Assembly: GCA_035536815.1 (NCBI GenBank) | Contig: DATLNJ010000033.1 | Location: forward strand, 11,315 to 75,314 | Reading direction: 5' to 3' | Source: Frankiaceae bacterium | Lineage (GTDB): Bacteria; Actinomycetota; Actinomycetes; BP-191 | Length of the DNA stretch: 64,000 nt | Shown: positions 56,704-58,092 of the stretch, one piece after another | How positions within the stretch are numbered: the first letter of the stretch is position 1 | Layout: each line of letters opens with the position of its first letter | Translations under genes and position numbers: made by a program | The notes under the pieces: generated by a model | Database searches by the model: none | What the model saw: the letters and a program-made list of their open reading frames with translations, nothing else | Told to the model about the DNA's origin: nothing

Positions 56704-58092
56704 ATGCACCGCGGGCGCGAGGCCACGCCGGCCGGACCCGCCGCGGCGCCGGGCGCCGCCAGGGTGGGAACTGCCGCAGCGCGGTCGTTCCCGGCACCCG
56801 TCGGTGGCGTGAGCGGAGCGATCGTCGTGGGGCGTGCGAACGACCCGGCCGAGGTCGTGGCCGACGCGGCGGCGGCACGCGCACTGCGGGCGCTCGACGT
56901 CTCCGGCGGAGTGCTGCGGCGGTCTGCGTCACCCGGCCCTGACACGCTCGGCGGCACGCCCGTTCGCGGCCCCGTGCTCGACGTGCTGCGCCGTCGGCGC
57001 GGCGGCGGGTCACCGTTGCCGCGCGACGTCGCCTCGTCCATGGGTGCGGCGTTCGGCGGGCGCGACTTCAGCCGCGTCCGCATCCACACCGACGGGGAAG
57101 CGGACCGCGTTGCCCGGTCGCTCGATGCCGCGGCGTTCACTCATGGCAAAGACGTGTACTTCACCCGCGGCAGCTACGAGCCCGGTACCGAGGCGGGCCG
57201 ACACGTCCTCGCGCACGAGCTCACGCACACGTTGCAGCCGGGCGGCCGCGTGATCCGGCGCAATCGGTTGGCGACAGCCCTCCTGGGCGTTGCGAGATCG
57301 ATGTTCGGCCGCCGGCCCGTCCAGGCTCCCTCAACCTCACTGCCCGGGTCGGGTGCGAGCGGTCGGGTCGCGATGACCATGCCCATGACTCCCTCGCCCG
57401 TTGGCGCGCCGCTTCGGCTGCCCGCGCTCGCGCTGGGACGCTCGTTCAGCAGCAGTACCTTGACTCGCGCGCCGGCCCCGGCCCCGGCCCCGGCCCCGGC
57501 CTCGGCCCCGGCCTCCGCCTCCGCCTCGGCCCCGGCCTCGGCCCCGGCCTCCGCCTCCGCCTCGGCCCCGGCCCCGGCGCTCGGCATCGATCCCGCCTGG
57601 CTCGCGGGAGCGGCAGCGCAAAGCCCGGGCTGGATCTTCACGGTCGAAGCTCTCAGAAAGAACGAGAGCAACAACGGGCACGTGACGGACCACGTGGGGC
57701 TCACGAACGCGCAACTTGTCGCGAACGCCGCACGGCGCGGAAAGCGTCACTCGTCCTTCCGCGACGTGGCGACGGCTGCGGACGTGATCGACCTTGCGCT
57801 GCGCCGCTACGCCGCCACGGTTCGCGCCGTCGCCTCGAGGACGCTGCCGCGCGCGACCCTCAGGGTGAAGATGCCGCGATGCGGGATGGTCGCGGACGAG
57901 TACGGCAACGTGCAAGTCGCAGACGAGGCCCTCGTGTGCATCGACTGGAATGCGCGTGGGCACCTGATCGTCGCAACGGCGTATCCGATCGCGCCGTTGC
58001 CATCTTCGGCGGCCCCGAGCCCCCCGACACCGACCGCCGCGGACGCCGCGACCGCGCCCGGCGCGCCTACCGGCGGAGCAGCAGGACCGTGA
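56704..58092 (+). CDS. DUF4157 (HExxH) domain protein with C-terminal RNase-A-like (CdiA-CT type) toxin domain
   Basis: ATG after AGGAGAG. PLPRDVASSMGAAFGGRDFSRVRIHTDGEADRVARSLDAAAFTHGKDVYF ... LAHELTHTLQ. (AP/AS)n linker. C-terminus NNGHVTDHVGLTNAQL ... SSFRDVATAADVI ... HLIVATAYPI. Confidence 0.75.
   Translation: MHRGREATPAGPAAAPGAARVGTAAARSFPAPVGGVSGAIVVGRANDPAEVVADAAAARALRALDVSGGVLRRSASPGPDTLGGTPVRGPVLDVLRRRRGGGSPLPRDVASSMGAAFGGRDFSRVRIHTDGEADRVARSLDAAAFTHGKDVYFTRGSYEPGTEAGRHVLAHELTHTLQPGGRVIRRNRLATALLGVARSMFGRRPVQAPSTSLPGSGASGRVAMTMPMTPSPVGAPLRLPALALGRSFSSSTLTRAPAPAPAPAPASAPASASASAPASAPASASASAPAPALGIDPAWLAGAAAQSPGWIFTVEALRKNESNNGHVTDHVGLTNAQLVANAARRGKRHSSFRDVATAADVIDLALRRYAATVRAVASRTLPRATLRVKMPRCGMVADEYGNVQVADEALVCIDWNARGHLIVATAYPIAPLPSSAAPSPPTPTAADAATAPGAPTGGAAGP
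57471..57578 (+). repeat. coding hexanucleotide repeat (GCCCCG/GCCTCC) including a duplicated 36-bp unit
   Basis: Encodes APAPAPAP followed by ASAPASASASAP twice, forming the linker inside the toxin gene. Confidence 0.85.

Follow-up and report, generated by a model that had tools for sequence, protein, structure and literature searches.

A probable cargo toxin of an actinobacterial contractile injection system, with an RNase-A-like effector domain and no adjacent immunity gene, in a Frankiaceae bacterium

We have analysed a 64,000-nucleotide stretch of DNA (hereafter the window) from a Frankiaceae bacterium (NCBI GenBank assembly GCA_035536815.1, contig DATLNJ010000033.1, positions 11,315 to 75,314 of the forward strand), with the focus on a gene at positions 56704 to 58092 of the window which encodes a protein with a DUF4157 domain in its N-terminal half and an RNase-A-like domain in its C-terminal half. 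Our analysis suggests, with a probability of about 0.62, that the product of this gene is a toxin carried as cargo by a contractile injection system (CIS) of actinobacterial type, i.e. a toxin of the kind associated with extracellular contractile injection systems (eCIS). The locus is a contractile-injection-system (eCIS/CIS) locus, and it is for this reason that we read the protein as cargo. Judged from sequence and a structure model, its effector domain belongs, as a divergent member, to the bacterial RNase-A-like (CdiA-CT of Yersinia kristensenii, Ykris) family.

The toxin is composed, from the N- to the C-terminus, of a putatively disordered N-terminal region, the eCIS_core/DUF4157 domain, a low-complexity linker, the RNase-A-like domain and a low-complexity tail. 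The corresponding features are as follows.

56704..58092, forward strand: toxin coding sequence, 462 amino acids (aa), based on the open reading frame (ORF), a ribosome-binding site with ATG and Pfam domains
56704..57012, forward strand: N-terminal region, aa 1-103, isoelectric point (pI) 11.9, rich in Ala, Gly, Arg and Pro, putative loading sequence
57013..57243, forward strand: eCIS_core (PF13699, formerly DUF4157), aa 104-180, Pfam E 6.1e-28, 97.3 bits against a cut-off of 22
57464..57578, forward strand: tandem-repeat DNA coding for the (AP)n(AS)n linker, from Tandem Repeats Finder (periods 6, 12 and 36; scores 130-172)
57682..57987, forward strand: RNAse_A_bac (PF18431), aa 327-428, E 3.4e-8, 34.8 bits against a cut-off of 27

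The ATG at 56704 is located 6 nucleotides (nt) past a Shine-Dalgarno-like GGAGAG and 25 nt past the stop codon of the upstream gene, which makes the toxin the last gene of a tightly packed forward-strand operon. The public annotation of the same protein (100% identity) begins 35 codons later, at an internal GTG at 56809, and is 427 aa in length. The longer form is favoured by an alignment of residues 5-40 with the homologue from Georgenia ruanii and by the length of the N-terminal regions in the homologues. In a window with a GC content of 0.70-0.79, the GC content at third codon positions (GC3) of the toxin gene is 0.84, the lowest in the locus, against 0.95-0.98 for the neighbouring CIS genes. 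Atypical GC3 is otherwise found only in an IS110 transposase gene and in a gene for a Lys-rich protein (both 0.88), which are described below.

The preliminary description of this gene, made from the letters alone, had proposed a polymorphic toxin with a DUF4157 head, a repeat-encoded (AP)n(AS)n linker and a C-terminal domain resembling the RNase-A-like CdiA-CT toxins. All of these elements are borne out by the Pfam match of the head, by the repeat array at 57464-57578 and by the comparisons given here. The HExxH motif of the eCIS_core domain is intact (H171-E-L-T-H175, at 57214-57228). The head of the toxin (aa 41-193) shares 56% identity with an 832-aa protein of another Frankiaceae metagenome-assembled genome (MAG; locus L001) and 41% with a 1149-aa protein of Georgenia ruanii (locus L002), and this similarity breaks off right past the eCIS_core domain, at about aa 185-193. 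Alignment thus confirms a polymorphic architecture, in which a conserved head is joined to C-termini that are unrelated between sister loci. A VVGRANDPAE...AD motif in the N-terminal region of the toxin is conserved in both homologues. Published cargo proteins consist of an N-terminal region, DUF4157 and a C-terminal domain and are loaded by an AAA+ protein (bioRxiv 10.64898/2026.05.27.728243), and by analogy to the AlgoCIS proteins Cgo1/Cgo2 described there, the N-terminal region of the toxin is a putative loading sequence. A DUF4157 effector has also been found to co-purify with a Streptomyces CIS (PMC11126660).

The identity of the C-terminal domain emerges from profile and structure comparisons, both of which lead to the same family. 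Searched alone, the domain scores 38.5 bits to PF18431. An exhaustive phmmer search with it, covering 1.84 billion cluster representatives, retrieved only two true relatives, P0035 and P0037 (E 7.5e-5 and 4.3e-4; 37-38% identity), which are themselves strong members of PF18431 (E 1e-20 and 6e-27). A third match, P0036, is a spurious repeat protein, and a word-indexed homologue search with the domain alone gave no match. In a phmmer search of the full-length toxin against the PDB the lone match was a chance, low-complexity one, so the link to the crystal structure 5E3E, the CdiA-CT of Ykris, is reached via P0037, which matches 5E3E by sequence, and via a structure model. The AlphaFold2 (AF2) model of the domain, built from a 55-sequence alignment, has a mean predicted local confidence (pLDDT) of 87 and a predicted template-modelling score (pTM) of 0.81. 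Foldseek places 5e3e_D and 5e3e_B at the top of the PDB (E 6e-8; root-mean-square deviation 2.8 A; target-normalised template-modelling score 0.77-0.79), while the next PDB match has an E of 0.046. The outcome under which the preliminary description would have failed, with no significant match of the domain to RNase toxins by profile or structure, did not occur.

Four residues, His175, Arg186, Thr276 and Tyr278, contribute to the activity of the Ykris toxin (Batot 2017, PMC5435912). In our alignment His330 corresponds to His175, Thr425 to Thr276 and Tyr427 to Tyr278, the last being followed by Pro428, and equivalents of Ykris Ser196 and Lys193 are also present. The domain is likely to be catalytically competent on this evidence; full competence is not assured, as the positions of Arg186 and Arg174 are occupied by Asn and Asp, to which we return below.

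The CIS assignment of the locus comes from the genes around the toxin, among which a Cis15-like ATPase with AAA and winged-helix domains (AAA/WHD), a Pvc16_N protein and a Tail_P2_I/TIGR02242 protein are encoded within 8 kb of it. The neighbouring features are as follows.

47440..48702, reverse strand: orphan basic Lys/Arg-rich protein, 420 aa, pI 9.9, GC3 0.88, downstream of the CIS ATPase gene
48774..50672, reverse strand: Cis15-like AAA+ ATPase with an N-terminal winged-helix domain (AAA + WHD variant), 632 aa, presumed cargo loader
50816..51487, forward strand: Pvc16_N (DUF4255; PF14065, E 1.5e-27), Cis16-like tail terminator, first gene of the toxin operon
51491-53686, 53665-55899 and 55896-56678, forward strand: three paralogous bitopic membrane proteins, based on Pfam, transmembrane (TM) helices and paralogy
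58067..58537, reverse strand: double zinc-ribbon protein, 156 aa, weak DZR match, C-terminal TM helix at aa 136-154
58534..59055, reverse strand: Tail_P2_I/TIGR02242 baseplate-type protein, 173 aa (PF09684 E 3e-6, TIGR02242 E 1.5e-13, CIS12_fam partial)

The forward-strand operon, in the order Pvc16_N, three bitopic membrane proteins and toxin, diverges from the ATPase gene and meets, tail to tail, the 3' end of a CIS baseplate operon. The ATPase is 71% identical to its orthologue in L001. All three membrane paralogues begin with a NEW3-like domain of ~220 aa, to which a single TM helix (about 224-244) is added; five CarboxypepD_reg repeats are also present in each of the two paralogues of 730-745 aa, and the third is 260 aa in length. 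On the opposite strand, the Tail_P2_I gene is translationally coupled (ATGA) to the zinc-ribbon gene, which codes well (GC3 0.96).

A rival view holds that the protein is a classical polymorphic toxin which leaves the cell independently of any CIS, for example by a type VII secretion system (T7SS), Sec or lysis, and that the CIS genes are adjacent by coincidence. RNAse_A_bac domains do ride on CdiA, Rhs and other carriers (PMC5435912), and many of the relatives stand alone behind hydrophobic leaders. However, no TM, hydrophobic or signal-like segment was found in the toxin, its head is an eCIS_core domain with an eCIS odds ratio of 2614 (PMC8213781), its start codon follows a gene of the CIS operon within 25 nt and in the sister loci DUF4157 toxins are encoded next to this ATPase. 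We consider such a CIS-independent route extremely unlikely.

The reading of the protein as CIS cargo is set further in context by comparison with other loci. The order from AAA/WHD to eCIS_core seen in the window is the same as in two canonical eCIS 3' ends (L006 and L007). The arrangement of Pvc16_N followed by membrane proteins is conserved in L001, L002, L010-L013, L017, L020 and L021; apart from the Frankiaceae MAG and Georgenia ruanii, the sharers of this operon are eight metagenomic loci. The ATPase and DUF4157 proteins are encoded there too, in some cases along with a PAAR-like DUF4280 protein. In L002 the PAAR-like DUF4280 gene is located just upstream of Pvc16_N (9480-9872, forward strand); in L001 an OTT_1508-like deaminase and a YbjN-like protein flank the DUF4157 protein (3731-7887, reverse strand); and in both loci the third member of the membrane-protein set exceeds 1,600 aa.

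Most informative for the region downstream of the toxin is the metagenomic locus L020. Past its Pvc16_N operon, and separated from it by 19 nt at the corresponding junction, this locus holds a convergent operon of LysM/CIS_tube, VgrG-like, gp25 and Baseplate_J/TIGR02243 genes, which ends in a single 293-aa fusion of Tail_P2_I and zinc ribbon (7761-8642, reverse strand). The N-terminal half of the fusion is 43% identical to the Tail_P2_I protein of the window, the zinc-ribbon protein of the window is homologous to its aa 201-241, and its C-terminus is a TM helix. By sequence comparison, the zinc-ribbon gene corresponds to the C-terminal half of a Cis12-like baseplate-operon protein, split off as a gene of its own, and the Tail_P2_I gene is the last remnant of a CIS structural operon. 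The pair suggests a membrane-anchored Cis12-like baseplate component. We had also considered the zinc-ribbon protein as a CisA-like protein and rejected this, the architecture of CisA being different. In the Chloroflexota loci (L003-L005), a Pvc16_N homologue is directly followed by sheath and tube genes, at the place where L001 and L002 have CarboxypepD_reg membrane proteins, and the 10-kb flanks of these two loci end inside giant membrane-protein genes. The idea of a 'sheath-less' CIS-accessory module, which this difference had raised, was rejected in view of the convergent baseplate operon of L020.

The DUF4157 proteins of L001 and L002 adjoin the ATPase gene, whereas the toxin of the window is located at the convergent junction. 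This shift in position, the tight junction of L020 and the low GC3 of the toxin gene together point to a cassette-like turnover of cargo genes. In the window, the slot that DUF4157 toxins occupy in related loci is taken by the Lys-rich protein, which has no match in Pfam, NCBIfam, PADLOC or the PDB and no homologue in any of the compared loci; its single-sequence AF2 model (pLDDT 43) is unusable. It is possible that the Lys-rich protein is a second cargo, and it is a weak candidate for an immunity protein. Just outside the CIS genes, at 43381-47413 of the forward strand, a gene pair encodes an HATPase_c_3/Hsp90-like ATPase and a TPR/TPR-S (sensor) protein, which might form an NTPase-based conflict or signalling system of their own.

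No same-strand ORF with a coding signature is present downstream of the toxin, whose 3' end overlaps the convergent zinc-ribbon gene by 26 nt (58067-58092). All six RNAse_A_bac relatives sampled, the two nearest included, have a gene for a protein of 98-111 aa directly downstream, overlapping or abutting; five of these partners are recorded as CdiI_2 (PF18593) and the sixth matches a hidden Markov model (HMM) built from the other five proteins (E 2e-6). A six-frame translation of the 64-kb window contains no CdiI_2 protein (best E 4.5 with a six-protein HMM and 0.1 with tblastn). All homologues of the Ykris toxin were reported to carry adjacent immunity genes (Batot 2017, PMC5435912). In lacking an immunity gene, the toxin thus truly departs from what is the rule in its RNase family, and on this point, as on the 26-nt overlap, the preliminary description was right. 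Most of the RNAse_A_bac relatives that we retrieved (L022-L030) stand alone as short proteins whose leaders are hydrophobic or resemble those of lipoproteins. Each has a CdiI_2 gene behind it, and several of them come from MAGs of Vicinamibacteria/Acidobacteriota. This arrangement looks like a free-standing secreted toxin-immunity pair and not like the tip of CdiA or Rhs.

The same description had offered the zinc-ribbon/TM gene as a possible immunity gene, and in this it does not hold. A more general form of the idea is that a non-homologous immunity protein exists, be it the acidic cytoplasmic part of the zinc-ribbon/TM protein, the Lys-rich protein or the product of a gene elsewhere in the genome. 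The pI of 4.6 of the zinc-ribbon cytoplasmic part, against a pI of 10 for the toxin C-terminal domain, and the tail-to-tail overlap of the two genes would fit such a role, and the Lys-rich gene shares with the toxin gene its restriction to this locus and an atypical GC3. However, the zinc-ribbon protein is unlikely to confer immunity, because its homologue, the C-terminal half of the Cis12-like fusion, is encoded in the baseplate operon of L020, a locus without an RNase toxin, and this argues for a structural or anchor component. The Lys-rich protein, with its pI of 9.9, is unlike typical RNase inhibitors and is encoded 8 kb away on the other strand, and neither protein resembles CdiI_2. On balance a non-homologous immunity protein seems very unlikely to us.

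In the DUF4157 field the missing partner is less surprising. DUF4157 is a core or marker domain of eCIS that toxins carry N-terminally. Many of these toxins have no immunity gene, for which expression just before lysis or inactivation by DUF4157 has been proposed (Geller 2021, PMC8213781). The CIS cargo context thus largely explains the immunity puzzle. We propose that the neighbouring Cis15-like AAA+ ATPase would recognize the N-terminal region of the toxin, unfold the protein and load it into the lumen of the tube. In line with published cargo biology, DUF4157 would be dispensable for loading and might have a part in processing or refolding. Once the system has fired, the C-terminal domain would refold and cleave cellular RNA without a metal cofactor, with His330 as the putative general base and Thr425/Tyr427 at the position of the second catalytic residue. 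There are two ways in which an immunity protein might be unneeded: the producer might keep the toxin sequestered or unfolded, or the target of the system might be the producing cell itself, as it is for the Streptomyces CIS, which is cytoplasmic and kills its producer under stress (PMC10066040), in a form of regulated cell death. In this scheme the RNase would be harmless until firing releases it.

Going one step further, it is possible that an RNase-A-type toxin has here escaped the pairing with CdiI_2 that is otherwise universal in its family, either because the CIS cargo route is self-protecting, the DUF4157 head and ATPase-coupled unfolding holding the toxin inactive until firing, or because it serves as a dedicated suicide effector of a cytoplasmic actinobacterial CIS. 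The charge reversal at Arg174 and the replacement of Arg186 would then mark a release from co-evolution with the inhibitor. We put this forward tentatively.

Some of our observations weigh against a functional CIS-delivered RNase. The fold match corroborates the sequence match but is not independent of it, since the AF2 alignment is made of PF18431 members. No second fusion of eCIS_core with RNAse_A_bac is found among the 120 family matches listed, and the pairing was found neither there nor in the literature surveyed. Amino-acid composition alone underlies the call that aa 1-103 are disordered. Sheath, tube, spike, gp25 and Baseplate_J genes are all absent from the 64-kb window, as judged by Pfam searches of all large ORFs and by tblastn, for which the queries were the baseplate, VgrG and gp25 proteins of L020 and sheath and tube proteins of Chloroflexota, so that CIS delivery is not demonstrable for this genome. 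Finally, the Arg186 column holds Asn341 and the Arg174 column Asp329 in the toxin, where Arg is present in 54 of the 54 other aligned relatives; in the Ykris toxin Arg186 has a role in transition-state stabilization, and the R186A and T276A variants retain residual activity and have lost growth inhibition (PMC5435912).

The last of these points supports a reading in which the RNase is attenuated or re-specialized, i.e. the change of Arg174 to Asp and of Arg186 to Asn has lowered or redirected its activity and the producer tolerates the toxin without CdiI_2. The domain might then cleave a narrow target or need activation. Other invariant positions are altered as well (Asn for a Gly, His for Ala195), the Ykris crystal complex has a salt bridge between Arg174 and the immunity protein (PMC5435912), and a new basic cluster, R345-R346-G-K347-R348-H349, is located in the loop that matches the Lys41 region of RNase A. 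On the other hand, His330, Thr425, Tyr427 and the core of the fold are kept. Only His175 and Thr276 are named as completely conserved in this family (Batot 2017, PMC5435912), which implies that Arg186 varies in the wider family, and the adjacent Arg and Lys residues could substitute; it is possible, from their position in the alignment, that the basic run R345-H349 compensates for the lost Arg. We regard an attenuated enzyme as rather unlikely.

The absence of the structural operon leads to a different reading, in which the toxin is a relic. The relevant feature is the following.

59056..60547, forward strand: IS110-family element with an intact transposase gene at 59310-60530 (DEDD_Tnp_IS110 and Transposase_20); the coordinates span the whole gap, the element ends being not mapped

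This gap runs from the start codon of the intact Tail_P2_I gene to the stop codon of rex, with 255 nt between Tail_P2_I and the transposase gene and 18 nt between the transposase gene and the rex stop codon, after which housekeeping genes follow. For the mapping of the ends, matches to the transposase were distant and located in plasmids only, no Rfam family was found and scans for inverted repeats were uninformative. IS110 and rex stand where L020 has its Baseplate_J, gp25, VgrG and tube genes, and the absence of these genes would be either real, through a deletion or rearrangement linked to the element, or an artefact of metagenome assembly, through a mis-join at a repeated insertion sequence. 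The toxin may therefore be stranded in the present assembly.

If the CIS structural operon was lost through a deletion or rearrangement associated with IS110, the toxin could be unused, perhaps silent, and decaying, and the question of immunity would be irrelevant. The change to IS110 and then rex exactly where the L020 operon has its Baseplate_J, gp25, VgrG, tube and sheath genes, the lack of any structural gene within 64 kb and a toxin GC3 that is the lowest of the locus are consistent with this. However, the toxin, ATPase, Pvc16_N, membrane-protein and Cis12-like genes are all intact, with strong coding signatures. The junction could equally be a mis-join at a repeated insertion sequence in the metagenome, the structural operon could lie elsewhere in the genome, and the low GC3 fits a recent horizontal gain of a cargo cassette just as well. 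A decaying relic is rather unlikely in our view, and we retain the cargo-type toxin as the preferred reading.

A few other features of the window were noted. A PhoH-like ATPase of 696 aa (4906-6996, forward strand) has its PhoH sequence in two stretches split by a LAGLIDADG_3 domain, which suggests an intein-type insertion. A protein of 680 aa (40352-42394, forward strand) combines sigma-70 regions 2 and 4, of extracytoplasmic-function (ECF)-like type, with a Kelch beta-propeller. The stretch 34600-39500 is lower in GC (0.68-0.69), has a weak coding signal, encodes small proteins with hydrophobic leaders and includes a Gly-rich repetitive ORF of 553 aa (36981-38642, reverse strand); it may be a foreign island.

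DUF4157-headed cargo toxins form a large, mostly uncharacterised reservoir of effectors, and Geller 2021 (PMC8213781) raised the question of how the producers survive them when immunity proteins are lacking. The toxin described here is a clean test case for the replacement of immunity by cargo architecture, as the sampled members of its family are all tightly linked to CdiI_2, whereas here the CdiI_2 gene is absent and two Arg residues connected with the inhibitor or with catalysis are changed. For engineered injection systems, its head and linker could provide a loading module. In addition, the locus is a record of a Frankiaceae-type CIS layout and of an IS110-linked loss, or mis-assembly, of the structural operon.

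Among known systems, the cytoplasmic CIS of S. coelicolor (type IId; Sco4256-4258, CisA) resembles the window in having three paralogous single-TM proteins with similar N-termini near cis15/cis16 (PMC10066040) and a membrane protein encoded right past the baseplate genes. No immunity genes are described for it, and its function is the death of the producer cell. The resemblance of the window paralogues to Sco4256-4258 is by description only, and their C-termini differ, with CarboxypepD_reg repeats in the former and ricin-type domains in the latter. The membrane protein past the baseplate genes is here a tail-anchored zinc-ribbon protein, unlike CisA (again compared by description), and the cargo is a soluble DUF4157-RNase. 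With the CdiA-CT of Ykris (5E3E) the toxin domain shares ~26% identity, having one residue fewer between the two His residues, and it is carried by a DUF4157 head rather than by CdiA or Rhs. The closest counterparts are the eCIS-associated toxins (the EATs of Geller 2021, AlgoCIS Cgo1/Cgo2 and Tme of S. davawensis), which share the DUF4157 domain with HExxH, the long linker and the variable effector, have a disordered N-terminus as is presumed here, and are likewise encoded at the 3' end of a CIS operon by a Cis15-type AAA ATPase gene, often without an immunity gene. Unlike in the EATs of the literature surveyed, the effector here is an RNAse_A_bac domain and the local CIS structural operon is missing. 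The toxin belongs, as a new member, to this known class of DUF4157-headed CIS toxins.

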